From NCBI GenBank assembly GCA_035387745.1, contig DAOOON010000004.1:15115-37896 (forward strand): DNA of 22,782 bases, read 5' to 3'. Below, in pieces: positions 1,985-21,248 of the stretch. Within the stretch, counting starts at the first letter, position 1, and the number at the start of each line of letters is the position of its first letter. Below the pieces are notes generated by a model. The model worked only from the letters and a program-made list of their open reading frames with translations, was not told the DNA's origin and searched no databases. The DNA comes from an archaeon. Its GTDB lineage: Archaea; Iainarchaeota; Iainarchaeia; Iainarchaeales; CSSED10-239. The position numbers and the translations under genes were made by a program.

Positions 1985-3619
1985 ATGATTCAAGATCCCA
2001 GAATTATAGACAATATAAAGAAATTAAAAGAATTGGGCATGAGTAATGATGACATAAAAGACAATCTTATAAAGATGGGGCTTTCCTCTGATGATTGTGA
2101 TGAACTAATTGCGGCTTCAAATGAAGACGAAAATAAAAATCGAAAACTTCAAGAAAAAGAACAAAAGAAAGAAAAAATAAAAAAAGAAGAAATCTTTAGT
2201 GAACCAAAAAAAAATGAACCCGCAGAAATTCCAGAAACTCTATTTCAAGAAGATAATAAAATTGATGCATTAAAAGAAGAAGTTTCTTTTACTATTAAAG
2301 ACGACTTTTCTGAAATTCCGGATTTAACTAGTGGATTAGATGTTGACCAATTAAATAATAGTGATACAGACATTAATTTTAATGCCCCTGACTTATCCAG
2401 AGAAGAAGAAAAAATAAAATTTGAAAAACCAAAAAATAAAGACTTTGATATTATTAAAAGCATAGATTTAGATAAAATAAACGCCGCTAAATTAATTGAT
2501 ACAACGCCTTCTGAAACGTTAAAAGAATTGGATGCAAATTCAAATATTTGGGGATCTGGATTAGCAACCACATTAAACGCAAGATTAAATGAAATAGATG
2601 AAAAACAAGAAAATTTTGAAAAGCTGCTTAAGAAAAAAATGGAAGACGAAGTAAAAAAATTTAAACAAATCCAAGAAACTTCAAAACAATTACTTGCTCA
2701 AAAAATTGATGAAGAACTTGCAAGTAGAACTGCCAACATTAATTCTCAATTAACAAAACAACTTGCACAGATAAAGGTAGAATTAATAAAAATTAATAAA
2801 AAATCAGACCAGATGACTACTGGCAAACAAGAAGTTGAAGATCTTATAAAAAGGTTAAAAGAAATACAAACACAAGTTTTAGAAAACAATAATAAATCAC
2901 AAGAAAATATAAACAGAATGGTGTTGTCAACCTCTGTAAAGTTAAACACTAAGATCAAAGAAATAAATGACATCTTAGCTTTGCAATCCAAAATTACACA
3001 AGGACTAATAAAAAATACACAAACAGCAATAACTAATGAAATAAAAAAATTCAACCAATTTAAAGAAGAACTTGAAAATAAAATCAACCCTCAGCAGATG
3101 TATGATAAACTTAATCAATTAGAAACATTTAAACAGCAATTAGCAAGCAGATATGAAACCCGTTTTGAAAACGTAAAAAGAGAATTTTTAATTAAAGCAA
3201 AAGATGCATTTAAAGAAGAAATTGAAACCCAACTAAAAGAATTAAAAAATATTAAAGAAACAATTGTAGCTAAAACTGACCCTAAATTGATTAGTGACAA
3301 ATTAGAAGAACTTGAATCTTTCCAAAACCATTTAATTTCTGCAATAGATGAAAAAATATCTCAATCTCTTAAGATTTATCAATCTGCAATGACTCAGGAC
3401 ATCTCTTCTAAGGCAAAAACCATTGATGAAGAAGTTGTTAAAGTTGAAAATGCAATCGTAAAATTAGGAGACGCAGAAGATAAGATAAAAGAATTAGATC
3501 AGTTTAAAGACCAATTTATCGCAATAATTGATAAAAATATCGAAAGAATGAATGCTACTTATAGTAAATTCGAACAGAAACTAAAAGAAATAGAAGATAA
3601 ACAAAAACTGATGATATAA
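1985..3619 (+). CDS. Lys/Glu/Gln-rich coiled-coil protein of unknown function (544 aa)
   Basis: Long ORF starting 4 nt after the adk stop. The N-terminal ~45 aa hold two short helical repeats (LKELGMSNDDIKDNLIK / MGLSSDDCDELIAAS). These are followed by an acidic linker and ~350 aa of heptad-like K/E/Q-rich sequence. No enzymatic motif. Confidence 0.6.
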   Translation: MIQDPRIIDNIKKLKELGMSNDDIKDNLIKMGLSSDDCDELIAASNEDENKNRKLQEKEQKKEKIKKEEIFSEPKKNEPAEIPETLFQEDNKIDALKEEVSFTIKDDFSEIPDLTSGLDVDQLNNSDTDINFNAPDLSREEEKIKFEKPKNKDFDIIKSIDLDKINAAKLIDTTPSETLKELDANSNIWGSGLATTLNARLNEIDEKQENFEKLLKKKMEDEVKKFKQIQETSKQLLAQKIDEELASRTANINSQLTKQLAQIKVELIKINKKSDQMTTGKQEVEDLIKRLKEIQTQVLENNNKSQENINRMVLSTSVKLNTKIKEINDILALQSKITQGLIKNTQTAITNEIKKFNQFKEELENKINPQQMYDKLNQLETFKQQLASRYETRFENVKREFLIKAKDAFKEEIETQLKELKNIKETIVAKTDPKLISDKLEELESFQNHLISAIDEKISQSLKIYQSAMTQDISSKAKTIDEEVVKVENAIVKLGDAEDKIKELDQFKDQFIAIIDKNIERMNATYSKFEQKLKEIEDKQKLMI

Positions 3620-5500
3620 TCAGTTTCTCTTTATTTTAAAAATTCCTAATATAAAAAACAGCATTATTAATAAACAAATAAAGATTATACCCCCCCACAC
3701 TGAATTTCGGAGTGTTAAAAATCCTAATAACTTTGATTGGCTCTTATCTTTTTCTACATCTTCTGTTAATTTTAGCAGAATTGGTTGTTCTAAGACTTCT
3801 CCGTTATTTGATACAAATCTTAATTCTGCCTCAATATCTTCTTTTGGAATATCTCCAATATTAATTTTTGCAGAAAGTGTTTTTGTTTCTCCAGGATTTA
3901 GGGTTATTGTTTGATCAACAACTAAATCAATATTTTGCGGGATATTAGTCAATTCTATCTTATTAATTGTTATTTTATTGCCTTTATTTCTCAAGGTAAT
4001 TTCAAATTCTTTTGAACTGTTTATTTCAACAGAAAGTGTTTTTGGATATGCCAATAATTCTATATTTAGTGGCTCTGATATTTTTACAACATTAATTATA
4101 TAATCTAATTCTTCAGAAAAGTTGTTTGATGTCCCATTTATTTTAACATTTAATGAAGATAAGCCTAGTTGTGTAAAATCACCTGCTGAAACATATATTG
4201 TTACATATTCGTTGTTGTGTTTATCAACGGTTATTCTTGAATCTTGTGTTGTTGCTTCTAAATCGTTATTTGGATTAAGTTCTATTGTTATATTTTCTTT
4301 TACATCTCCTGTATTTTTAAGTAAAATCATAATTTGTATGGTTTTACCTATTGCAAGATTTAAATTTGATTCACTTAAATTCTCTATTTTAAAATCAAAT
4401 TTTGGATTTACTACTAATTTCACGTTTTTTGAAATTGACTTAAGACCATCAAAAAAATTTAATTTTAGGTTGTAAGTACCAGAAATAATCTTATCTGAAA
4501 CTGTAAAGGTAAAAACAATATTTTTGCTTTGATTTGGGTCTAAATTAAATTGACGACTAGAAATATCTACTTTGATTTCTGAATTAACATTGTCTTCAGA
4601 AATATAGAATGTTCTATTTGTATTAGAAATATTTTTTAAAGTATAAGACAACGTTTTACTTTGCCCTTTACTTATGTTTTGAGTTGTTGATGCAGAACCA
4701 GATACTGTAAAATCATTATTTGGCTCTGGGCAATCCTCTGCATAAAGAGAAAATTCTTTAATTATTTTTATCTCTTCGTTTTCTATTCTTAAGGTTAAAT
4801 CAAATTCTTCTCCATCTGTTGCATTATTAGAAACAATTACTGAATAATCTATTTCTTTTTCGTCTCTTAAATATACTGGATTAGAATATTCTGAACTTAT
4901 TACTAATTTTGGACTGCTTAAATAAATACCGTATAATCCATCACTATAGTCGTTTTCTATATCTAAAGTTATTGTATTTGTTCTGCCAATACATACATTT
5001 GTGGTTGAGAGATCCACTGAAAACTCTCCATCTTCTTCGTCTTCTGTAACTTCTATATCTGTTCTAAATTCCTCTGTATCTTGATCTTCTGAATTTAGTA
5101 ATTTAATATAAACTGTTACTTTCGAATCCGATTCATCAAGAGCAGAAACATAGAAAGAATCTGTTAATTCGGAATTTCCTGGGAGAGTATATCTCTTAGA
5201 ATAATTACATTCTAATTCATCTTCATCTTCGCAGTCTGCCCAGACTCTTATTTTTGCAACAACGGGGTTGTTATTTACTATAGTAAAACCAATCTTTGTG
5301 CTAGTGTCTTGCATTAAAGAATATATTCCTTTATCAAATATTAAATCAAGGTTACCAATTTCTGGTTCATTTGTTTCTGCAAAAACTGCTTTTGCAGTAA
5401 ATAAAGACAGTAAAATAAATATTCCAATAACGAGATATTTAAATTTATTATGACTTGATTTTTTATTATATTTTTGAAAATCATTTAATTTTGTCTGCAT
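3620..5500 (-). CDS. Secreted, C-terminally membrane-anchored cell-surface protein with repeated Ig-like (CARDB/NEW3-like) beta-sandwich modules
   Basis: Track ORF 3620..5530. The preferred start is ATG at 5500 (MQTKLN...), preceded by AGAGGA 6 nt upstream and lying 13 nt after the stop of the upstream gene. Signal/anchor segment LVIGIFILLSLFTAKAVFA. At least six repeats of the pattern x-T-L-x-L-x-N-x-G/S...; C-terminal TM VWGGIIFICLLIMLFFILGIF followed by KIKRN. Confidence 0.6.
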   Translation of the reverse strand: MQTKLNDFQKYNKKSSHNKFKYLVIGIFILLSLFTAKAVFAETNEPEIGNLDLIFDKGIYSLMQDTSTKIGFTIVNNNPVVAKIRVWADCEDEDELECNYSKRYTLPGNSELTDSFYVSALDESDSKVTVYIKLLNSEDQDTEEFRTDIEVTEDEEDGEFSVDLSTTNVCIGRTNTITLDIENDYSDGLYGIYLSSPKLVISSEYSNPVYLRDEKEIDYSVIVSNNATDGEEFDLTLRIENEEIKIIKEFSLYAEDCPEPNNDFTVSGSASTTQNISKGQSKTLSYTLKNISNTNRTFYISEDNVNSEIKVDISSRQFNLDPNQSKNIVFTFTVSDKIISGTYNLKLNFFDGLKSISKNVKLVVNPKFDFKIENLSESNLNLAIGKTIQIMILLKNTGDVKENITIELNPNNDLEATTQDSRITVDKHNNEYVTIYVSAGDFTQLGLSSLNVKINGTSNNFSEELDYIINVVKISEPLNIELLAYPKTLSVEINSSKEFEITLRNKGNKITINKIELTNIPQNIDLVVDQTITLNPGETKTLSAKINIGDIPKEDIEAELRFVSNNGEVLEQPILLKLTEDVEKDKSQSKLLGFLTLRNSVWGGIIFICLLIMLFFILGIFKIKRN

Positions 5501-5513
5501 ATACTTTCCTCTT

Positions 5514-6353
5514 TTATTTCCTATATACATATTTAATATATTTTGTTGAGAAAGATAAAATTACAATTATTAAAATAATAATTAAGATTATTTGAAAAAT
5601 TATTGAATTAAAAATAGTTGTTAGATTTATACTTTTTGTAAAAGAAACTAACCCTGTAAAAACAGAAATAACCTGTACTTTGGATTTATCTGTTTCTTTT
5701 TTTGGAAGCTCGAGGGTTACATAACCATAAACCCCATTACATCTATATTCTATTTTTGTTTCTTTTAAGTCTGTTTTAAAAACTCTAACCATTTTTGTTT
5801 CTACATCACTTGGAACAATTACAACGCCTATTGGATATTCTAGATTTATATCTTTTATTCCTATTACATCTAGTTCTTGATCTTTTTTGCTTGAATTATT
5901 AAAAAACAAATCTAATCTATAGTTTCCTGATTCTTTAACATAAACTATAGTGTGTTGTAAATCAATTGGACAACTTCTATTTGCTTTCTGAATAATCTCA
6001 AATTCTATTTTCTTAGAATTTTGTAAATACATTAACTCTATACTTGCTTTATAGGTTGAATCTAAAACATTTTCTTGAGGAGAAATAATTAAAGTAACTT
6101 CTTTAGATTCACTTGATTTAAGTGTGATTTTGTCTTCAGAAAAATAAGACTCGTAAGGAGAAGTATATGACACTAGAGAATAGGTTTGTTCTGTAGAATT
6201 TGGATTATAAACATAAAGAGTAACATAGATGGGTGTATCAACCACAGTTACTTTTTTTGGAAAAGAAACTGTTGGTGTGTTCTCTGCATAAATTATTTGC
6301 AAAGAAAATAATAAAGTAATCATTAAAACTAAAAATACATTTTTTTTAATCAT
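5514..6353 (-). CDS. Secreted, C-terminally membrane-anchored surface protein (279 aa), probable partner of the downstream 3620-5500 gene
   Basis: N-terminal signal peptide MIKKNVFLVLMITLLFSLQIIYA, a beta-rich middle region, and a C-terminal TM IIFQIILIIILIIVILSF followed by basic residues. Same strand as, and almost contiguous with, the next surface-protein gene. Confidence 0.55.
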   Translation of the reverse strand: MIKKNVFLVLMITLLFSLQIIYAENTPTVSFPKKVTVVDTPIYVTLYVYNPNSTEQTYSLVSYTSPYESYFSEDKITLKSSESKEVTLIISPQENVLDSTYKASIELMYLQNSKKIEFEIIQKANRSCPIDLQHTIVYVKESGNYRLDLFFNNSSKKDQELDVIGIKDINLEYPIGVVIVPSDVETKMVRVFKTDLKETKIEYRCNGVYGYVTLELPKKETDKSKVQVISVFTGLVSFTKSINLTTIFNSIIFQIILIIILIIVILSFSTKYIKYVYRK

Positions 6354-9740: not shown

Positions 9741-10268
9741 TTATTCTCTTAGGTAGTTTGATATATCATTAATCTTAATAGTTTTAGAACAAACTTTATT
9801 TAAATGATACGATTTTGTTTTTGGAAAACTAACATTAATTACTTGCTTTCCAAGAGCTTTTATTTCTTCTATTGCTGGAATAAAGTCTGCATCATTAGAA
9901 ACAAGTATTGCAATATCGTAGTTATCCTTGTAAGCATTAACAACCATATCAACTGCAAGTTTAACATCAACCCCTTTTTCTGATTTCTTACCATCTGGTC
10001 TTTTTTCTAATCTACCAAAAAAAATATCCATTACAGAAATTTCTCTTAAACTATCAAAAAACAGTTGTTGCTTTTTATATGCTTCTTCATCATCGTCTAT
10101 ATTTAATACCGAATTATAATATTTAATTACTATTAAATCATCATTTTCTGAGAGAAAATTACAAAACTTTTCAAAATCAATTTTGGTTTTATAAAAAGAA
10201 TTCCTTAAAGAATAATAGAAATTGCTTCCATCAATAAATATCATCACTCGCTTTATAGAATCAGACAT
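9741..10268 (-). CDS. NYN/LabA-like domain protein (predicted PIN-like ribonuclease fold)
   Basis: [15 protein letters not shown] at the N-terminus, then [11 protein letters not shown] and [23 protein letters not shown], the pattern I recall for the NYN (LabA/DUF88) family. Its stop lies 14 nt upstream of the smc start, so the two are likely co-transcribed. Confidence 0.7.
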
Positions 10269-10560
10269 TTAAATCACATAAAAGACCGCCTGCCATTGAA
10301 AATCTTTTGGATTTTCAACAACAGGGAGCTAATATTATATATAGGTAACGAAACGTTTTTAAACATTAAAGTTAGATATTTGCTCACGATAGAAATTACT
10401 GCCATCAATAAATATCATCACTCGTTTTATAGAATCAGACATTTAAATCACTTAAAGAAATCCTACCTTTGTGAACCTAAAAGATCCCCAATGGTAGGGA
10501 GTTAATTATAAATATATTATAGCGATATTTTTTTAAATATTAAAGTTGATAAAATGGCTA
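10215..10560 (-). repeat. Tandem duplication of two ~172-bp units (10215-10388 and 10389-10560). Each unit carries an AT-rich promoter-like segment, a leader hairpin and the first 18 codons of the NYN gene
   Basis: Hand alignment shows 10215-10277 vs 10389-10451 is 60/63 identical (offset 174). The central parts have diverged but each still folds into a hairpin (10289-10325 and 10462-10498). Similarity resumes distally (GGGAG[C/T]TAAT..., TTTTTAAA[C/T]ATTAAAGTT). Confidence 0.8.
10359..10442 (-). pseudogene. Truncated duplicate of the NYN-gene 5' end (27-codon remnant)
   Basis: Reverse complement reads ATG TCT GAT TCT ATA AAA CGA GTG ATG ATA TTT ATT GAT GGC AGT AAT TTC TAT..., i.e. [18 protein letters not shown]. 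This is identical to residues 1-18 of the 9741-10268 product. It then diverges and stops (REQISNFNV*). Confidence 0.7.
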
Positions 10561-11589
10561 TTACAATAACCGTTTGATTTTTAAAAAATAAGGATTATTT
10601 GCCCATATTTGATCTAAAATCTTATAGGAATTAGCAAATTTAAAATATCCTAAATAACTAGATATTGAGGATTTTACTTTGAAGAAGTTCTTTTCGTAAG
10701 TTAAAATCTTTAGTTTCTTTATAAATTTCTTAATATTTCGTTTTCTTAAAAACACATATTCTGGGTATATTTTATATCCTACAAAATCAACTCCGGTTTT
10801 TATTTCAAAAAGGTTGATTTTTTGCTTTGGAATTTCTAGTTTTAACCGTTTCTTTAAATAATATTTTATGTTCTTTTTATAGTAATTTAATTGCTTTTTT
10901 GAATCTTCTAAAATAATAAAATCATCCACATACCTATAATAATATTTAATCTTTAATTTGTGTTTTATATATTGATCTAATTCGTTAAGATATATATTTG
11001 AAAATAATTGACTTGTAAGGTTACCAATAGGAATCCCTTTATCTTCTCCAAAATTCGAATAATCACTATCAATAATATCAAATATTAATTTTTTTGTGTT
11101 CTTACATCTTATCTTTTTTTCAATTACTTGCTTTAAGATAATTTTATCAATACTTGGGAAATATTTTTTAACGTCGCATTTTAAGCAATAACCTGTAAAT
11201 CTAAACTCGCGTGAAATTGTTTTTTTAATGTCTTTTAGAGCTTTGTGTGTACCTTTGTTTTTTCTACAAGCATAAGTTGTTGATATCAGTCGTTTATCAA
11301 AAATCGGTTCAATGACATTAACAAGTGCGTGATGAACTACTCTATCTTTAAATGGCAAATATTTAATTTTTCTTTGTTTTGGATCAAAAACTATAAATTC
11401 GCGATATTTTGATTGAGTGTATGTGTTTGCTAATAGTTCTTCTTGAATCAATAACAGATTTTTCTCTAAATTAAGTGAGAATTCTAATGTTTCTTTTGTT
11501 TGTGGTTTTGCTTTTCTTGCTTTATTGTAAGCTAAAACTAAATTTTTAAAAGATGTTATTTTTGACCATAAATTGTTATATGTTTTCAT
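10561..11589 (-). CDS. DGR-type reverse transcriptase (342 aa)
   Basis: RT motifs: YVDD catalytic box at 10921-10932 (YYRYVDDFIIL). IGNLTSQ at 11008-11028, which is the [I/L/V]GxxxSQ signature that distinguishes DGR RTs from group II intron RTs. CDVKKYFPSID (motif 3/A-like). Compact size with no maturase, endonuclease or RNase H extension. Lies adjacent to a TR/VR pair and an Avd homologue. Confidence 0.9.
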   Translation of the reverse strand: MKTYNNLWSKITSFKNLVLAYNKARKAKPQTKETLEFSLNLEKNLLLIQEELLANTYTQSKYREFIVFDPKQRKIKYLPFKDRVVHHALVNVIEPIFDKRLISTTYACRKNKGTHKALKDIKKTISREFRFTGYCLKCDVKKYFPSIDKIILKQVIEKKIRCKNTKKLIFDIIDSDYSNFGEDKGIPIGNLTSQLFSNIYLNELDQYIKHKLKIKYYYRYVDDFIILEDSKKQLNYYKKNIKYYLKKRLKLEIPKQKINLFEIKTGVDFVGYKIYPEYVFLRKRNIKKFIKKLKILTYEKNFFKVKSSISSYLGYFKFANSYKILDQIWANNPYFLKIKRLL

Positions 11590-11999
11590 GTTTTTTCTTT
11601 TTAAAAAAAGATTATTGTAATATCCCTTTTTTTAAGTACTAATTACAATAACTTTTGCATTTTTTCGGCATATTTGGTATCCATTTTTTAATACAAGGCA
11701 AAAATACCTGCCAGGAATATACCAAATGTAGTTGATCATTTAAATACAATCTTTGTTTGTTTTTAAAAACAAATAATACAAACAAACTCTTTGTAAACCC
11801 ACAAGTAATGTGGGTAGACACTACAACACAACGAAACCCGATGTTGTTGTTCGTGTTAGACGGATTGTTGTTCGCGTTCAAGTTCAGAACTCCGGCGTTC
11901 GTTTCGTTGTTCCAGTTACCGCCACGCAAAAACGGTTGTGTTATTTAGTATAGCCTAGGTTTAAAACCCAAAAGAAGATAGATTGAAATATTTTTTAAA
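11590..11999 (-). ncRNA. Putative DGR RNA: template repeat plus flanking leader and a 231-nt TR-RT spacer
   Basis: Non-coding interval between avd and the RT that contains the TR. A small hairpin CCCACA-AGTAA-TGTGGG (+ strand 11798-11814) sits 7 nt after the TR end, and an 18-nt AT palindrome TTTGTTTTTAAAAACAAA lies at about 11757-11774. By analogy with the BPP-1 DGR, avd-3'/TR/spacer would form one functional RNA. Confidence 0.5.
11821..11934 (-). repeat. DGR template repeat (TR), 114 nt
   Basis: Gap-free 114-nt match to 12887-13000 (95/114 identical). In the frame of the VR it reads FLRGGNWNNETNAGVLNLNANNNPSNTNNNIGFRCVV, with 13 Asn AAY codons. It has no plausible start codon or gene context of its own. 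About 48% GC by hand count. Confidence 0.92.
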
Positions 12000-12332
12000 T
12001 TAAGTTGTTTTTAATAAGCCGCCAAGCAATTTACCTATTTCATTAATTTTTCTTGATGCAATCTCATATTTGTTAAAATTTATAAGATTTAGATCTTTTG
12101 AAAGTCTTATAAATAATCTTAGTTTTTCTATTTCTACACTTGCTATTTTTAAAGACTCTTGTCTTTCAAAATTATAATTATAAGAAACTATATTTTCAAA
12201 GAAAGCAATAAAACATAATTTGATCTTTTCGCCTAAAACATACTTTTCAGATTTTGGGAACTTATTAATTAAAGGCCAAAGCCACAAAAAGAAGTCATAG
12301 CTTTCCTTATATACTTTTAAATCATCAAGCAT
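12000..12332 (-). CDS. avd: Avd (accessory variability determinant), four-helix-bundle protein of the 23S rRNA-IVS protein family
   Basis: DLKVYKESYDFFLWLWPLINKFPKSEKYVLGEKIKLCFIAFFENIV matches the family consensus I recall (DLKVWQKA..L...IY.LT..FPK.E.Y.L..Q..RAA.SI..NIAEG). 110 aa, basic C-terminus. In the canonical position between the target gene and the TR. Confidence 0.85.
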   Translation of the reverse strand: MLDDLKVYKESYDFFLWLWPLINKFPKSEKYVLGEKIKLCFIAFFENIVSYNYNFERQESLKIASVEIEKLRLFIRLSKDLNLINFNKYEIASRKINEIGKLLGGLLKTT

Positions 12333-12336
12333 ATAT

Positions 12337-12717
12337 TCATCTTTTTTGAATTTTTCTTAAAACTCCAGAAATCATTTTTAGTTTTTCTTCTAAAGCATCA
12401 TAATTTTCTTTTAAATCTTCATCAGATATCAGTTTACTATTATTTAATAATATTAAATTAGACTGGGTTATAGAAATTGCATTTCTGGCTTTATTATACT
12501 CTATTGCTTTAAGATTTGTATCATAATTATTATAGCCACTGGCAACATAAGACAATATCTCTATTGCAGTTTTATTTGTATCCTCAATCAGAAAATAAAA
12601 GTATACATCATTATTTTTGTTTTCGCAATCATTTAAAATTGTCAATATTTTCTCAACAACAGGAAACATATCTTGATAGATTTTAAAACTAGCAACTCCT
12701 TTATCAGAGATCCACAT
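12337..12717 (-). CDS. Second, divergent Avd-like four-helix-bundle protein (126 aa from the ATG at 12717; the track ORF starts at TTG 12729)
   Basis: FKIYQDMFPVVEKILTIL...AIEILSYVASGYNNYDTNLKAIEYNKARNAISITQSNLILLNNSKLISDEDLKENYDALEEKLKMISGVLRKI follows the same helix pattern as IVS/Avd proteins (SI.SNIAEG...S.KEF..FL.IA.GS..E..T.L.LA..L.Y......L......I..ML..L). Its stop is 4 nt before the avd start. Confidence 0.6.
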   Translation of the reverse strand: MWISDKGVASFKIYQDMFPVVEKILTILNDCENKNNDVYFYFLIEDTNKTAIEILSYVASGYNNYDTNLKAIEYNKARNAISITQSNLILLNNSKLISDEDLKENYDALEEKLKMISGVLRKIQKR

Positions 12718-12757
12718 TATTTTTCCCAATTTTTAAATTAATTTTTTTTGCGCACGC

Positions 12758-12788
12758 AAAAGGCTCGCGGATACTTCCGCGACCTTTT
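12758..12788 (-). promoter_or_regulatory. GC-rich hairpin/cruciform with a 4-nt loop, downstream of the VR (candidate DGR target-recognition element)
   Basis: On the + strand, AAAAGG(C)TCGCGGA - TACT - TCCGCGACCTTTT gives 13 bp with one bulged C (12764) and loop 12772-12775. On the minus strand it is not followed by a U-tract, so it is not a classic intrinsic terminator. It sits about 90 nt 3' of the target stop codon. Confidence 0.55.
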
Positions 12789-12875
12789 GGAAACTACTGA
12801 CTAACGGACAAACGGACGATATGCCAGGAGCCAGTGGTCCAGAGGTCAGTGGTCAGGCATAACAACGGACCTCGG

Positions 12876-14225
12876 TCACGTCGGCTCTACAACACAACGA
12901 AACCCGAAGGCGATGTTCGTGGTAGACGGCTCGCTGTACGCGTACAAGTACAGAACTCCGGCGGTCGTAGCGGCGCTCCAGTCGCCGCCACGCAAAAACG
13001 CATGGGGCGGGCCAGAATCCATAAAAAAACTAACATAACCTAATCCATTATCTTTATTATAATCTGAATTTAATAAAAACAATTCCTTATATCCTATTTT
13101 TGTAAAATCAACATAATCAAAAGCATCAGAATAATTTTCAAATGATCCATTATATTCAAAACCACCTTTCCGTTCATCACAATCTCCAAAATCACTACCT
13201 ATTAATTTATTACAATCCAAATAAAAATCAGAAGTGGTTCTATCAGTCCAATCTAAAACATTTCCTGAAAGATCCCAAACTTCACTGCCATTTGTTAGCT
13301 TTAACATTGCTAGTTGATTTCTTCCGGTTCCTGATTCTGGATCAGCTCCATCATATGATACATTTGCTACAACATCTCCTGCATTCCCTCTTTTTAAAGA
13401 CCCCTGACCAACAGCCCCACTTGACCAATTGCTTGGAACAACTTCAATATTTCGAGCAATAGTCATCCATTCTTCGTTTGTTATTAAATGACCCCCAATG
13501 GATTCACACGCCAATATTGAATCTGTTTGATTAATATCTGTTAGTGGATAACCTTCTGCACTGCTTACTATTGTTCTGCTAGGCACACTATATTTACAAC
13601 TTGCATTTATGTTATTTTGCCAAGTTAAATATAATTCATTTTTACAACTGGCGTTAGTATCGCCGAGTCCATCTCCATTTTCATCTACTTTCATCTCATA
13701 TTTGGCAACACAAAAACCTTCGGTGCCATAAAGATAATTTCCTGGAACTGGAACAAAGCCTGTAGGGCATTGACTAGGAGCTGGGCTTCTGTTTGTGTTT
13801 TTTACATTATTAAAGGTTAGGTAACTGCCGTCTTCTAGTAATAAAGCAATTGATATTTTTTCTTCGTTAATAATCCCTAAAGGAAGCATGAACTCGCCTG
13901 CGTGGGTGATCTCTTTTTCTGGTTCTAGCGGGATATAGTCGTTATAGCCTAGAAGAGAATAACCTACAACTTTAAAATTAATATCAGTATTGCTTGGAGG
14001 ATAATAATCAAAGATATACATGCCGTTTTGTGCGCTTTTAAAGCGCATGAAGGATTGCTTGTCGTTTAGAACATTATAGTTGACAAGACTATCAGTTTTT
14101 GAAACCGAAGAATTTGTAAAGTTTTTTCCCCAGTTTAAAACTATAGTTACAAGAATTACTGCAACTACTACTAAAAGAATTGTTGCAACTATTGGAGTTA
14201 TAGCTTTTGCTTTACTATTTTTCAT
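12876..14225 (-). CDS. DGR target (variable) protein: archaeal type IV pilin-like N-terminus fused to an FGE-sulfatase/C-type-lectin-fold domain with a C-terminal VR
   Basis: N-terminus MKNSKAKA/ITPIVATILLVVVAVILVTIVLNW matches the archaeal class III signal peptide and pilin hydrophobic core. FGE-sulfatase-like motifs: GFVPVPGN...GFCVAKYEMK, ACESIGGHLITNEEWMTIARN, WDLSGNVLDWTD, and terminal RGGDW...GFRCVV. The VR lies at the extreme C-terminus, as in known CLec-fold DGR targets. Confidence 0.88.
   Translation of the reverse strand: MKNSKAKAITPIVATILLVVVAVILVTIVLNWGKNFTNSSVSKTDSLVNYNVLNDKQSFMRFKSAQNGMYIFDYYPPSNTDINFKVVGYSLLGYNDYIPLEPEKEITHAGEFMLPLGIINEEKISIALLLEDGSYLTFNNVKNTNRSPAPSQCPTGFVPVPGNYLYGTEGFCVAKYEMKVDENGDGLGDTNASCKNELYLTWQNNINASCKYSVPSRTIVSSAEGYPLTDINQTDSILACESIGGHLITNEEWMTIARNIEVVPSNWSSGAVGQGSLKRGNAGDVVANVSYDGADPESGTGRNQLAMLKLTNGSEVWDLSGNVLDWTDRTTSDFYLDCNKLIGSDFGDCDERKGGFEYNGSFENYSDAFDYVDFTKIGYKELFLLNSDYNKDNGLGYVSFFMDSGPPHAFLRGGDWSAATTAGVLYLYAYSEPSTTNIAFGFRCVVEPT
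12887..13000 (-). repeat. DGR variable region (VR), the last ~38 codons of the target gene
   Basis: 114-nt counterpart of the TR. It reads FLRGGDWSAATTAGVLYLYAYSEPSTTNIAFGFRCVV. It differs from the TR at 19 positions, 17 of them at TR adenines. About 60% GC by hand count in an AT-rich genome. It ends 8 nt (12879-12886) before the stop codon at 12876-12878. Confidence 0.92.
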
Positions 14226-14273
14226 GATCTCTGTGCCTCTCTATTTATATTATTAATAACATAAATAAATAAA

Positions 14274-14313
<40 letters not shown>

Positions 14314-14325
14314 ATTTTTTAGTTA

Positions 14326-15615
14326 TCAAAAGATATCGTTTCTTTTTATCTCAGTTTTACCATACATGTACTTTTGAAGGACTTTTGGAATCTTTATTGT
14401 GCCTTCCTTTGTCTGATGATTTTCAAGTATTGCAACAAGCGCCCTTGAGGTTGCTATTGCTGTGTCGTTAAGTGTATGAACAAAATATTTTTCGCCTTGC
14501 TTTGTCTTTGCCTTAATGTTTAATCGGACTGCTTGAGCACTTGTAAGATTACTACAAGACGCAACTTCAATATACTTGTTGTTTCTTGGAGACCACACTT
14601 CAATGTCTGCGCTTCTATGTTTTAAATCCCCAAGATCTCCAGAACAAATTTCCAGCGTTCTTGTTGGTAGTTCCATTGAGGTAAAAATCTTAACTGTATT
14701 TTTAATTAATTCTTCATATAGTTTTTCTGATTGCTCTGGTTTACAAATAATTATCTGCTCAACCTTATCAAACTGATGTAATCTAAATAACCCTCTTTCA
14801 TCAAGGCCATGACTGCCTATTTCTTTTCTAAAGCATGATGAAAAACCAAAAATCTTAATTGGTAATCTTTCTTCATCAATTGTTTTGTCCAAAAACATAG
14901 AAATGATTGGATGTTCAGAGGTTGCAATCATGTAAAGGTCTTCACCTTCAATCTTGTAAGCCATTTCTTTAAAGAAAGAAAAGTCCACACTTCCTTCACA
15001 AGCTTTTTTGTTAATCATTAATGGCGTTAAAACATAAGTAAAGCCTTTCTTGTTTAGGAAATCCTGAGCATAATTTATTAGTGCTCTGTTTAGGAGCGCT
15101 AAATCTCCTTTAAGATAATAGAAACCTTTTCCTGAAACATTTCTTGAAGCTTCAAAGTCTGCGACATTTAGTTTTTCTGAGAGCTCTCCGTGATTGAGAA
15201 CTTCAAAGTCTTTTTTTTCTGGTTCTCCAAATCTTTTAATTTCTTTATTTTCTGTTTCGTCTTTACCAATTGGTGTCTTTCTTGACATTATGTTTGGTAT
15301 TTTTTTTTGAATATCAATAATTCTTTCAAATAGTTCTTTTTGTTTATCATCTATAACTTTAATCTGATCAGGGAATTTCCTTGCTTCTGCTAAAAGGTCT
15401 TCTGTTGGTAATCCCTTTTGCTTGTTTTCTGCAATCTTGTCTGTTACACTATTTCTTTTGTGTTTTAAGTCGTTTGCCACTTGGATATTTGCTCTGTATT
15501 CTTCATCAAGTCTTATAATTTCATCAACTAAAGGAAGAAGAATATCTTTGCCTTTTTTTTTTATATTTTCTTTAACTTTCTTAGAATTCTCTCTAATGAA
15601 TTTTAGTTCAAGCAT
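14326..15615 (-). CDS. serS: Seryl-tRNA synthetase
   Basis: MLELKFIRENSKKVKENIKKKG is a typical SerRS N-terminal coiled-coil arm. Class II core motifs are present: FRKE (CFRKEIGSHG), RLHQFDKVE, and the C-terminal GTIKIP...L..YM. 429 aa. Confidence 0.92.
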   Translation of the reverse strand: MLELKFIRENSKKVKENIKKKGKDILLPLVDEIIRLDEEYRANIQVANDLKHKRNSVTDKIAENKQKGLPTEDLLAEARKFPDQIKVIDDKQKELFERIIDIQKKIPNIMSRKTPIGKDETENKEIKRFGEPEKKDFEVLNHGELSEKLNVADFEASRNVSGKGFYYLKGDLALLNRALINYAQDFLNKKGFTYVLTPLMINKKACEGSVDFSFFKEMAYKIEGEDLYMIATSEHPIISMFLDKTIDEERLPIKIFGFSSCFRKEIGSHGLDERGLFRLHQFDKVEQIIICKPEQSEKLYEELIKNTVKIFTSMELPTRTLEICSGDLGDLKHRSADIEVWSPRNNKYIEVASCSNLTSAQAVRLNIKAKTKQGEKYFVHTLNDTAIATSRALVAILENHQTKEGTIKIPKVLQKYMYGKTEIKRNDIF

Positions 15616-18785: not shown

Positions 18786-21248
18786 ATGATGATTATGAAT
18801 AGGTGTTTTTTATTATTGTTTTTTTTAGTATTGCTAATTGGAAATGTTTATGCAATTACAATTAATGAAATAACAATAACTCCTGATCTAGATATATCTT
18901 ATTTTGGAAGATACCAAATTGATGCAAATATTACAGAGTATTCTGGAAACGACGTTAATCTTTTAGTTTCTGCAATCAATGGGGATGGTGGAACGTGTTG
19001 GGATTATTTTGTGGATGGTACTTGCTCAAGCGAAACGCCTTCAACTTACTCTATGGATTATAATGAAACAACTGGTTTTTGGCACTATGATAGAGTATAT
19101 CCTGACACCATCTATCCTGAAATTATATTTATTGATTCTCCAACAAATTGGAATAACGCTCCCTCATGGGTAAATCTATGGAGACAAAATTATCATATCT
19201 TTAAAATGTATAATAGTTTTGAAATGGATTCAAACATGAATCTATGGATTGAATTTAATACTGAACCAGTAAGCACAAATAATTCAGGAGATCTTTTTGT
19301 TTATGTTGTGGGAGCTGGCGTTCCATTAAGTTATTTTACAAGCGATTGGAGAGATGATTCAAATACACAACTTGTTGGAACGATTTCAAGGAATACGGCA
19401 TTTAACCACGATCACACACCTTCAACACATTATGTAAGACATCATCTGATTCCAATAACTGCAAACCCTGATGGTACAATTGGAACAAATCATGTTAATA
19501 TATCTGATGGCAATTTCTATATTGTTCTTTATCAAGACTCCACAGCAACGAATAGAGGTTGGAATCTTGCATATAAACCAACAAGTCTTTGTGATAACAC
19601 CGACAATTGGTTTACAGCAAACAGAACAGGAGGAAACTGGAACCTACCGATTCATAGATCTGGCTGTTCAGACGCTCACATTCATTTTGCAAGAAGAGAA
19701 ACTTACAATGATGGAGTAAATTTAGAAGTGACTGCTGTTGATGGAGAAGACATTACAACTCTTGATGTAAACTATTATTTTGCAGAACTACCAAACCTTG
19801 CACCAAACGAAACTTCTTTTATCACACCAATTCCTTTAGCAACATACGACACTAATTCCATAGAACTTTCTTGGAATCCTGCAACTGATCCAAATAATGA
19901 TGATTTGACTTATGATATCAATTATATGGATAGCGACGGAAATATATTTGTAATTGATAACAATTTTACAGACACAAACATTTCTTGGGACGTTTCTGCA
20001 CTAGAAGATGGAAATTATTTAATTCTTGGAAGTGTTTGTGATACTGAACCACTATGTACGGACTTTAATCTAAGTGATTATTTCTATATTAATCGTTCTG
20101 AACCAATCTATTCTCTTTCAACAATCACAATTGCGTCAAATTATTTTTATACAGACTATGCAAAAGTTGGAAGCCAAATAAATTTGTCTTTTATTTCTAC
20201 AGGAACATTATCAGAAGACCTAAATGTGATTTTCTATGCAAATGGTGTAGAAGTAACTGGAGACATAAATGTTACAAATAATACAAATGATTACAATGCA
20301 ACTTATGTTATACAGGAAGAAGACGATGATGGCATTGTTGGCTTTACAATAAGTGCAACTAATCTTGACTATGATTATTTTGATACAACAGATGATTCTT
20401 ATGTGACAATAGATAACACTATTGCAGATCAAGACCAAGACAACATCCCTGATGCAAATGATACTTTTGTTGGGAGTTTAGGTATTGTTGAAACAGAAGG
20501 AATTGATGATTTAAATATCACAATTGATGACGACACAAATATTGTAGGAATATTTACTGGTGTACAAACCATAAAAATTTATGACGCCCAAACACCAATT
20601 TTGGAATTTGATCATAACTTTTCAGAAAGCACACTTGATTTATCTGTAATAAAAATTATTAAAACAAATGCAGGCGTGGTTGTTGACTTAAACGGGCAAC
20701 TTCAAGAAGACCAGAACAAAACACTTTATCTTGAAAATAATAATTTTATTTCGCTTTGTGTAGAAAATGAAGCAATAACTTCAATTTCAGACATTAGTTC
20801 TAATTGCTTGGATGCTAACGAATATGATTTTACTGAATGCTTAAGCGAAAGCTATTCTAGTAACGGAATAGATTGTGTTCTAAATGGAAACCTAATAACA
20901 GTAAGTAATCTTAGATATTCAGGAATACTTGGAACAGTAAGAACAACAAGTGGTGGAAATTCTATTTCAAAAGAGGCAGATGATACAGAAGAGATTATTT
21001 CTGAAATAAACACCGACACAGAAAATACAGACAATAATCCAATTATTGTTACGCCAGAAGATAAAGACCCAGAATATAATGTGGTCTCCTCTGATAGCCC
21101 AGATTATAAACCAAATGATGAAATGCCACCAATAGATTACTCTAGAAAAAGCAAAAACACAACAACCATTTGGATAATTACCTATTTTATTTGTGCCTTA
21201 ATAATTGGTATAACAATATATCTATTCACTAAAATAAGATACAGATAA
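18786..21248 (+). CDS. Large secreted, C-terminally anchored surface protein (820 aa) with an FN3-like module, a thrombospondin-type-3-like Asp-rich repeat and an uncharacterised Trp/Cys-rich N-terminal domain
   Basis: Signal peptide MNRCFLLLFFLVLLIGNVYA. ELSWNPATDPNNDDLTYDINY is FN3-like. DQDQDNIPDANDTF is a Ca-binding TSP3-like repeat. An acidic, Thr-rich stalk precedes the C-terminal TM TIWIITYFICALIIGITIYLF, followed by TKIRYR. Confidence 0.6.
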   Translation: MMIMNRCFLLLFFLVLLIGNVYAITINEITITPDLDISYFGRYQIDANITEYSGNDVNLLVSAINGDGGTCWDYFVDGTCSSETPSTYSMDYNETTGFWHYDRVYPDTIYPEIIFIDSPTNWNNAPSWVNLWRQNYHIFKMYNSFEMDSNMNLWIEFNTEPVSTNNSGDLFVYVVGAGVPLSYFTSDWRDDSNTQLVGTISRNTAFNHDHTPSTHYVRHHLIPITANPDGTIGTNHVNISDGNFYIVLYQDSTATNRGWNLAYKPTSLCDNTDNWFTANRTGGNWNLPIHRSGCSDAHIHFARRETYNDGVNLEVTAVDGEDITTLDVNYYFAELPNLAPNETSFITPIPLATYDTNSIELSWNPATDPNNDDLTYDINYMDSDGNIFVIDNNFTDTNISWDVSALEDGNYLILGSVCDTEPLCTDFNLSDYFYINRSEPIYSLSTITIASNYFYTDYAKVGSQINLSFISTGTLSEDLNVIFYANGVEVTGDINVTNNTNDYNATYVIQEEDDDGIVGFTISATNLDYDYFDTTDDSYVTIDNTIADQDQDNIPDANDTFVGSLGIVETEGIDDLNITIDDDTNIVGIFTGVQTIKIYDAQTPILEFDHNFSESTLDLSVIKIIKTNAGVVVDLNGQLQEDQNKTLYLENNNFISLCVENEAITSISDISSNCLDANEYDFTECLSESYSSNGIDCVLNGNLITVSNLRYSGILGTVRTTSGGNSISKEADDTEEIISEINTDTENTDNNPIIVTPEDKDPEYNVVSSDSPDYKPNDEMPPIDYSRKSKNTTTIWIITYFICALIIGITIYLFTKIRYR

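Follow-up and report, generated by a model that had tools for sequence, protein, structure and literature searches.

Evidence for a chromosomal diversity-generating retroelement in an uncultured AT-rich, probably Iainarchaeota-related archaeon

Introduction

The diversity-generating retroelement (DGR) of Bordetella phage BPP-1 (mtd-avd-TR-brt), in which a target gene carrying a variable repeat (VR) is followed by an accessory gene, a template repeat (TR) and the gene for a reverse transcriptase (RT), is the prototype and the described system to which the locus reported here is most readily compared. DGRs are common in DPANN archaea (PMC6349945; PMC5758913), with examples in Nanoarchaeota, Pacearchaeota and Woesearchaeota as well as in bacteria of the candidate phyla radiation (CPR) credited to Paul et al. 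(2015, 2017) and Handa et al. (2016) in PMC6349945 and PMC5006420, and attachment to partner cells has been suggested as a role of the DPANN elements (PMC6349945). Iainarchaeota are not listed among DGR hosts in this DPANN review, and the genome paper of Ca. Forterrea multitransposorum makes no mention of a DGR. Here we analyze a 22,782-nucleotide (nt) stretch of archaeal DNA (GenBank assembly GCA_035387745.1, contig DAOOON010000004.1, positions 15,115 to 37,896; hereafter the window), and conclude with high confidence that it contains a chromosomal DGR of an uncultured AT-rich archaeon, probably related to DPANN/Iainarchaeota. This conclusion draws on A-specific mismatches between two repeats, the gene order, an RT of the DGR type, an Avd protein, a target with a C-type lectin (CLec) fold, and a series of VR alleles accompanied by a constant TR. 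The host placement is provisional, being taken from the label 'archaeon' in the source record and from the names under which relatives of the DGR genes are recorded; the nearest named relatives belong to Ca. Forterrea multitransposorum (RT 52% identical, same cassette) and 'Ca. ainarchaeum sp.'.

Results

A template/variable repeat pair with adenine-specific mismatches

The core of the locus is a pair of 114-nt repeats (Table 1) that align without gaps at a constant offset of 1066 nt and are identical at 95/114 positions. In the sense of the minus strand, 17 of the 19 mismatches fall on adenines of the TR (A>G 6, A>T 6, A>C 5), of which it has 33 in total, while the remaining two are T>C at TR 11918 / VR 12984 (T17C) and T>G at TR 11864 / VR 12930 (T71G). 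Apart from the breakdown by replacing base, these values had been obtained by hand in an earlier sequence-only reading of the window, and an independent recount reproduces them; the enrichment test that it proposed yields a Fisher one-sided p = 1.9e-9 with an odds ratio of 42, and the GC contents that it had put at about 48% for the TR and 60% for the VR are measured at 48.2% and 59.6%. The same reading was right about an invariant 3' end of 21 nt and slightly short on the 5' end, where the invariant stretch comprises 16 nt rather than ~14. Its sharp repeat boundaries are likewise borne out, the alignment beyond both ends being at chance level, and the 7 nt past the 3' end match at 4/7, so that the 121-nt extension returned by a repeat search is not meaningful homology. 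The mismatches are not distributed across all four template bases and the divergence is not continued into the flanks, these being the two outcomes that the earlier reading had named as speaking against a DGR.

A separate repeat search of the window recovers the TR/VR pair unprompted, and a TR pattern with every A replaced by N matches these two sites alone (0 expected from shuffles); no further VRs were found in the window. Translation gives both peptides as previously read and shows 12/13 Asn codons of the TR to be changed in the VR. The expectation that an AAY-rich template would diversify a protein without truncating it also holds: residues can be changed through an adenine in 17 TR codons (13 AAY, 1 GAA, 2 ACG, 1 ATC; 2 silent), no stop codon is reachable by A-to-N changes, and the computed number of reachable protein variants is ~6e17. 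The TR lies immediately upstream of the RT gene and has no independent evidence of coding. A 96-aa open reading frame (ORF) at 11639-11929 that would include it was considered and rejected, as it has no family match and the sequence downstream is constrained as RNA hairpins with compensatory changes.

The reverse transcriptase

The RT matches Pfam RVT_1 and aligns over its full length with PDB entry 8ub7_A (E = 1.6e-62). No paper naming 8UB7 was found, and we identify this entry as the Bordetella DGR RT through its sister 8ub8, which is described as a DGR ribonucleoprotein RT. In this alignment the motif IGNLTSQLFSNIY pairs with IGSLTSQLFANVY of 8ub7, IGNLTSQ with IGSLTSQ, and YVDD with YMDD. 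Residues R74 and I181 of the Bordetella enzyme (bRT), which were reported to promote adenine mutagenesis (PMC7826257), have retained equivalents in R73 and I188 of the RT analyzed here. Judged by its sequence, the enzyme belongs to the DGR clade. Two other assignments were tried and rejected: as a group II intron maturase it scores 136 bits vs. a cutoff of 300 (TIGR04416), with no Rfam group II intron in 10300-14400, and as a retron or Drt RT it scores 52 vs. 235 (retron St85), 72 vs. 200 (Drt3a) and 50 vs. 390 (Drt2).

A scan of species-representative genomes returned 80 loci with RT homologues, distributed over Woesearchaeota, Nanoarchaeota, Pacearchaeota, Ca. Forterrea, Patescibacteria, Bacillota and others, and a self-comparison script detected an own A-biased TR/VR pair in 51/80 of them, many of the others being short contigs. 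Between close strains the RT is 99.9% identical, with an intact ORF and all catalytic motifs. As a separate observation, in a distant member of the clade defined by the second Avd-like gene described below (L103:2687-3736 and L104:1681-2730) gene calling splits the RT into two ORFs (214 + 127 aa), which may represent a frameshifted or inactivated RT or an assembly error.

Avd and a second Avd-like gene

An Avd protein is present in ~74% of DGRs and is not obligatory. The canonical Avd of this locus is assigned by Pfam bAvd (E = 2.8e-20) and exceeds the curated cutoff of NCBIfam NF033474 DivGenRetAVD (94.7 bits vs. 80), and its homologues adjoin an RT in 58 related loci; a phmmer comparison with PDB sequences returned no match for it. 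Directly upstream lies a second gene, here termed Avd2, encoding an acidic protein of 126-130 aa (pI 5.5 vs. 9.1 for Avd). Its likely start, judged from an alignment, is the ATG at 12717, the ORF listing having started at TTG 12729. Avd2 matches 23S_rRNA_IVP and TIGR02436 weakly, both below cutoff, and a jackhmmer search seeded with the canonical Avd (Avd1) pulls in Avd2 homologues. An AlphaFold2 (AF2) model of medium confidence (predicted local distance difference test, pLDDT, 66) has four helices, and its best folds are the S23/IVS-family structures 2rld and 2gsc together with Avd 4dwl (TM-score 0.64-0.75, weak E-values). Taken together, the below-cutoff family matches, the jackhmmer recruitment and the medium-confidence fold match suggest that Avd2 is an Avd paralog. 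A direct hhalign comparison of the Avd2 and Avd1 profiles was not significant (probability 0.7%), and the Avd2 profile returned chance CorA matches alone among PDB sequences.

Avd2 belongs to a small family, as an exhaustive profile search through 1.84 billion proteins found just 41 representative clusters, and the order target-Avd2-bAvd-RT is found in every Avd2 homologue for which the context was obtained (L021, L017, L101, L102 and L103/L104; Table 1). The tandem Avd2-Avd arrangement is a clade-specific feature. Two avd genes were reported in 1/372 DGRs in a previous survey (Wu et al. 2018, PMC5758913).

The target protein

The VR occupies the last ~40 codons of the target gene (codons ~410-446 of 449), in a region matched by Pfam FGE-sulfatase (E = 9.3e-7, above cutoff). 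An AF2 model built with 60 homologues (pLDDT 81) consists of an N-terminal long helix, a beta-sandwich domain and a large C-terminal domain, and its best PDB folds are the DGR variable protein TaqVP (5vf4), then FGE enzymes, then Mtd (1yu0). In this model the VR-bearing C-terminal domain has an FGE-sulfatase/CLec fold. The N-terminal helix appears, weakly by score, to be archaeal pilin/archaellin-like: Pilin_N reaches 17.2 bits vs. a cutoff of 25.2, and the archaeal flagellin 8fk7 is matched at E = 0.018. Homologues of the target are annotated as flagellin-like, as carrying an archaellin/type IV pilin N-terminal domain, or as members of the SUMF1/EgtB/PvdO family, and the counterparts in CPR bacteria bear a bacterial prepilin N-methylation domain. 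Since a pilin-like helix would thus carry a variable CLec/FGE domain, the target is most likely a surface ligand-binding or adhesion protein.

VR alleles and TR constancy across strains

Relatives of the locus were collected by exact-protein look-ups, which located it in more than 10 independent assemblies; a metagenome DNA pattern scan with the 3' halves of VR and TR returned L016 and L017 alone, and the sequence cluster of the target has a single member and provided no extra alleles. All 11 assemblies of close strains have the same TR (100% identity), which also stays unchanged across strains whose Avd2, spacer and target differ by up to 8-25%; in relatives with an RT gene of 74-78% DNA identity, the TR still reaches 98-99%. 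Along with this constant TR, at least six VR alleles are observed (the window, which equals L001-L003, and L004, L012, L016, L099 and L100). The allele peptides differ at Asn positions of the TR peptide, mismatches fall on A at 24/24 positions in L012 and at 15/15 internal positions in L099, and 32/33 TR adenines are substituted in at least one of the six alleles, the sole exception (A113) lying within the invariant 3' end. The sequence-only reading had asked for multiple VR alleles from populations differing at A-templated positions; approximated with assemblies, this comparison gave six alleles that differ almost exclusively at such positions next to an invariant TR. On these sequence comparisons, the TR is the invariant donor and the VR the variable recipient. 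In addition, the Logan contig of L013 (SRR11845626) starts at VR position 94 (window 12907), one base 3' of the last A-templated site, which is where a de Bruijn assembler is expected to break if that site is polymorphic within the sample; this is suggestive only of within-sample VR polymorphism.

A second source of variation is apparent in a mosaic island at ~12337-13700 (vs. L099, L004 and L012), which begins in mid-target, takes in the VR, the GC-rich spacer and Avd2, and is 80-92% identical in strains whose seryl-tRNA synthetase and RT are 99.8-99.9% identical and whose TR and TR-RT spacer are 100% identical. Blocks of this island are shuffled among lineages, e.g., P0127 has exactly the first 173 residues of the target, followed by a block common to P0138. 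Shuffling among otherwise near-identical strains indicates, at the level of sequence, that recombination diversifies the target module on top of the DGR.

Two relatives deserve mention in their own right. In L017, a ~78% identical relative, the adjacent VR (L017:1088-1167, vs. the TR at L017:2139-2252) has a 3-nt insertion and lost homology in its 5' half, while a perfectly collinear VR (L016) is located on another contig of the same metagenome; either two targets or strains are present, or this VR is decaying. The sample that contains the window contig also holds a second related cassette, L100 (JGI 3300010355, Ga0116242_10017436), with a TR 94.7% identical and its own VR allele. The cassette context of both L100 and L012 is different (RhuM-like, DEAD/ResIII helicase, small ORFs), a hint that the cassette, or just its target module, can pass from one genome or element to another.

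Weighing of the evidence

Several observations weigh against a straightforward reading of the locus as an active DGR. The same consensus VR is present in three samples (L001-L003) with 100% identical flanks, so that diversification may be rare or one allele dominant. The substitutions T17C and T71G of the window VR are not explained by canonical A-mutagenesis. Non-A differences between TR and VR were reported in 23% of DGRs (PMC5758913), and in this lineage independent alleles show them repeatedly at the same T sites, which are third codon positions (three alleles differ at T17, two at T71 and one at T54). Since relatives include TRs with G17 (L018) and C71 (L100), some of these differences may be footprints of imported VRs or of TR drift; C17 and G71 of the window match none of the TRs recovered. 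Furthermore, the DNA surrounding the other alleles is mosaic, and repeated A-directed diversification is therefore demonstrated for the lineage and not necessarily for this particular genome. Finally, a BPP-1-like initiation of mutagenic homing (IMH) site, a run of 14 G/C, is not recognizable downstream of the VR, where the recognition element described below is a candidate.

Some of these points would fit a fossil, i.e., a DGR by descent that is now inactive, with a frozen VR and with TR and RT persisting without function: the identical allele comes from three independent samples, T17C and T71G could be ordinary mutations acquired since the last homing event, and decay does occur in the clade, as seen in the VR insertion of L017 and the split RT of L103/L104. 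However, the near-identical RT of close strains is an intact ORF with all of its catalytic motifs, and the complete identity of the TR and its 231-nt spacer between strains, while adjacent genes diverge by 8-20%, indicates strong purifying selection at the nucleotide level. Moreover, close strains with identical TR and RT bear VR alleles that differ at A sites, and the L013 contig breaks exactly at the last variable position. An inactive remnant is, in our judgment, improbable.

The chance of an ordinary segmental duplication of the target 3' end, followed by drift or gene conversion with no reverse transcription, appears negligible. Two ~83% identical copies 1 kb apart in a region that is recombinogenic among strains might call it to mind, but it leaves unaccounted for the concentration of differences at a single template base, the lack of indels, the abrupt ends of homology, and the position of the TR copy, which no supported gene covers and which has a DGR-type RT directly downstream and Avd upstream of it; nor would it lead one to expect the same 32 A positions to vary across six alleles next to a TR that never changes. 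It is also very improbable that the locus is an integrated virus or mobile element with a viral receptor-binding protein as its target, as in BPP-1. The closely related cassettes of L100 and L012, in another gene context, do point to movement or recombination of the cassette, or part of it, between genomes; yet in the window, L099, L004 and L018 it is placed between seryl-tRNA synthetase/FKBP and NYN/SMC genes, no virion, integrase or att-like features were seen, and the pilin/archaellin-type N-terminus of the target is typical of cellular surface filaments. All DGR-defining components that can be assessed in silico lie beside the repeat pair, and a chromosomal DGR is accordingly the interpretation pursued below.

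Non-coding elements

The spacer between TR and RT has features of a structured RNA. An RNAalifold analysis of 7 relatives found 19/55 predicted pairs to be kept through changes on both sides, mostly in hairpins 3' of the TR. The first of these (11798-11814) is located directly 3' of the TR, with a second one following, and the first hairpin pairs via entirely different sequences in different relatives (CCCACAT/TGTGGG, CTCTTTT/AAAGAG, CCTTAT/ATAAGG); the spacer also contains the (near-)invariant blocks AACTACAT and TCCTGG. By analogy, this organization fits the requirement of the Bordetella system for a structured RNA 3' of the TR (bioRxiv 2023.10.23.563531). Searched against Rfam in E-value mode, positions 10300-14400 gave no family match, neither for the TR-spacer RNA nor for the element that follows the VR.

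The post-VR spacer stands out by its ~56% GC in a ~25% GC genome, has a DNA fold z = -3.4, and is retained in the close clade. On the downstream side, the 21 nt that the VR shares with the TR give way to a GC-rich flank specific to the VR, and then come a GGTCCG...TGGACC stem and a long hairpin. The first stem is invariant in 6 related loci, which makes covariation uninformative, and it could be an analogue of the BPP-1 post-IMH hairpin. The long hairpin is kept in relatives with compensatory stem changes (GCGG/CCGC vs. GCCG/CGGC), is followed by TTTT and an A/T-rich TATA-like tract, and is probably the terminator of the target gene; an A-rich/TTAATTTAAAAA tract is located just upstream of the Avd2 gene. 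The post-VR region may thus combine a candidate recognition element, the target terminator and a promoter of the avd2-avd-TR-RT unit.

Locus organization and genomic setting

All parts of the DGR, as defined by ORF calling and Pfam in the window, are on the minus strand in the canonical order target(VR)-spacer-Avd2-bAvd-TR-structured spacer-RT and make up a cassette of ~3.7 kb (Table 1). Both flanks consist of housekeeping genes. One flank has seryl-tRNA synthetase, FKBP isomerase, GNAT acetyltransferases and NIF3; the other carries an NYN-domain protein, SMC and adenylate kinase.

Table 1. Features of the DGR locus (window coordinates unless a locus label is given), with recurrent non-A sites and Avd2 homologues.
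Feature	Position	Strand	Basis
Target gene, 449 aa	12876..14225	-	ORF, Pfam and fold model
VR, 114 nt, target residues ~410-446 (FLRGGDWSAATTAGVLYLYAYSEPSTTNIAFGFRCVV)	12887..13000	-	Alignment to TR
Post-VR spacer, 157 nt, including last 3 target codons and stop	12730..12886	-	Composition
GGTCCG...TGGACC stem-loop, ~15 nt downstream of VR homology	12836..12871	-	Alignment of 6 related loci
Long hairpin CAAAAGGTCGCGG-AAGTA-CCGCGAGCCTTTTG, then an A-run and a TATA-like tract	12757..12789	-	Fold prediction and relatives
Avd2, acidic Avd-like four-helix-bundle gene (putative)	12337..12717	-	Weak family matches, fold model, synteny
Avd, 110 aa, pI 9.1	12000..12332	-	Pfam bAvd, NF033474
TR, 114 nt, 33 adenines, 13 AAY codons in VR frame	11821..11934	-	Alignment to VR
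TR-RT spacer, 231 nt, presumed 3' part of DGR RNA	11590..11820	-	Alignment of 7 relatives and RNAalifold
DGR RT, 342 aa	10561..11589	-	Pfam RVT_1, PDB match
Recurrent non-A sites: T17>C,G,G; T71>G,C; T54>G	12984, 12930, 12947; also L016, L100, L004		
Avd2 homologues	L021:3799-4206; L017:1351-1728; L101:258-650; L102:4001-4423; L103:1513-1914		

Some further features were recorded around the cassette. Between the RT stop and the NYN gene, positions 10215-10551 contain a 174-nt tandem duplication (1.9 copies, 77% matches), the second copy of which repeats the NYN promoter region and the first ~54 nt of the gene, which creates a pseudo-start ORF that is short and truncated. The target start is separated from the upstream seryl-tRNA synthetase gene by a palindromic, (AT)n-rich tract of ~65 nt and 9% GC (14261-14326), which may be a promoter or melting region. 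Three ORFs have no Pfam family (1985-3619, plus strand, 544 aa; 5514-6353, minus strand, 279 aa; 18786-21248, plus strand, 820 aa), and a neighboring 636-aa ORF (3620-5530) has weak Fn3/DUF1616-like matches alone; these four may be further surface proteins.

Discussion

The anatomy of the repeats, the A-specific pattern of substitution, the protein identities, the constancy of the TR and the natural occurrence of several VR alleles are read from sequence, whereas an RNA intermediate, the way it would be primed, the element recognized, any present activity and the role in the cell are inferred. A working scheme for this locus can be drawn up from the Bordetella phage system. The minus strand would be transcribed through avd2-avd-TR-spacer-RT, and RT together with Avd would reverse-transcribe the TR part of this RNA, copying C, G and U faithfully and inserting any nucleotide opposite A. 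The mutagenized cDNA would then take the place of its 114-nt homologue, the VR, in the 3' end of the target gene. The 21-nt 3' end that both repeats have in invariant form, combined with the GC-rich flank specific to the VR, presumably gives the process its direction.

The contribution of Avd2 to such a scheme can be addressed only tentatively. It could be a genuine retrohoming co-factor in a two-component Avd system of the Iainarchaeota-type clade, acting, e.g., as a partner or regulator of the Avd pentamer or as a target-site specificity factor. Because the recombining island that holds the VR and its GC-rich flank also includes Avd2, the target module and the co-factor would then be exchanged jointly. 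We regard this proposal as possible and rather doubtful at present.

Overall, the locus documents that a DGR diversifies a surface protein of pilin-like type and lectin fold in a DPANN lineage of the Iainarchaeota type. For archaea with reduced genomes that depend on a host, attachment to a partner could plausibly hinge on such a hypervariable ligand-binder at the surface. The cassette is also a clean natural example of a DGR, being complete, with an intact RT, a constant TR and six alleles that cover 32/33 templated adenines, and it is compact, with a second Avd-like gene that could be examined in existing reconstituted DGR systems. The type of system is already known, and the general understanding of DGRs is unchanged by this locus.

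A side-by-side comparison with the BPP-1 DGR reveals agreement in the order target(VR at 3' end)-avd-TR-RT, full-length RT homology with the IGxLTSQ and YxDD motifs and the R74/I181 equivalents, an Avd homologue, the A-to-N pattern, an AAY-rich TR, a CLec-fold target (Mtd being among the fold matches) and a structured RNA 3' of the TR. It also reveals differences: the locus described here is chromosomal and archaeal, whereas BPP-1 is phage-borne; its target is pilin-like/FGE-type rather than a tail-fibre tip; in place of a recognizable (G/C)14 IMH, its post-VR element is a different GC-rich sequence; and an extra acidic Avd-like gene precedes avd. The reported two-avd DGR (Wu et al. 2018) is similar in having two Avd/S23-family four-helix-bundle genes per cassette, while Avd2 of the present locus is acidic, highly divergent and kept in the same synteny. 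TaqVP of Thermus aquaticus, the best structural match of the target, likewise has its VR in the C-terminal part of an FGE-like CLec fold, with an identity of ~13%, whereas the target of the present locus adds an apparently archaeal pilin-like N-terminal helix and a beta-sandwich domain. Finally, the known DGRs of DPANN archaea and CPR bacteria have in common with this one an ultra-small, AT-rich uncultured host, a CLec-fold variable protein, a single adjacent target and a presumed surface-attachment role, from which it is set apart by closest relatives of the Iainarchaeota type and by the tandem Avd2-Avd arrangement of its clade.

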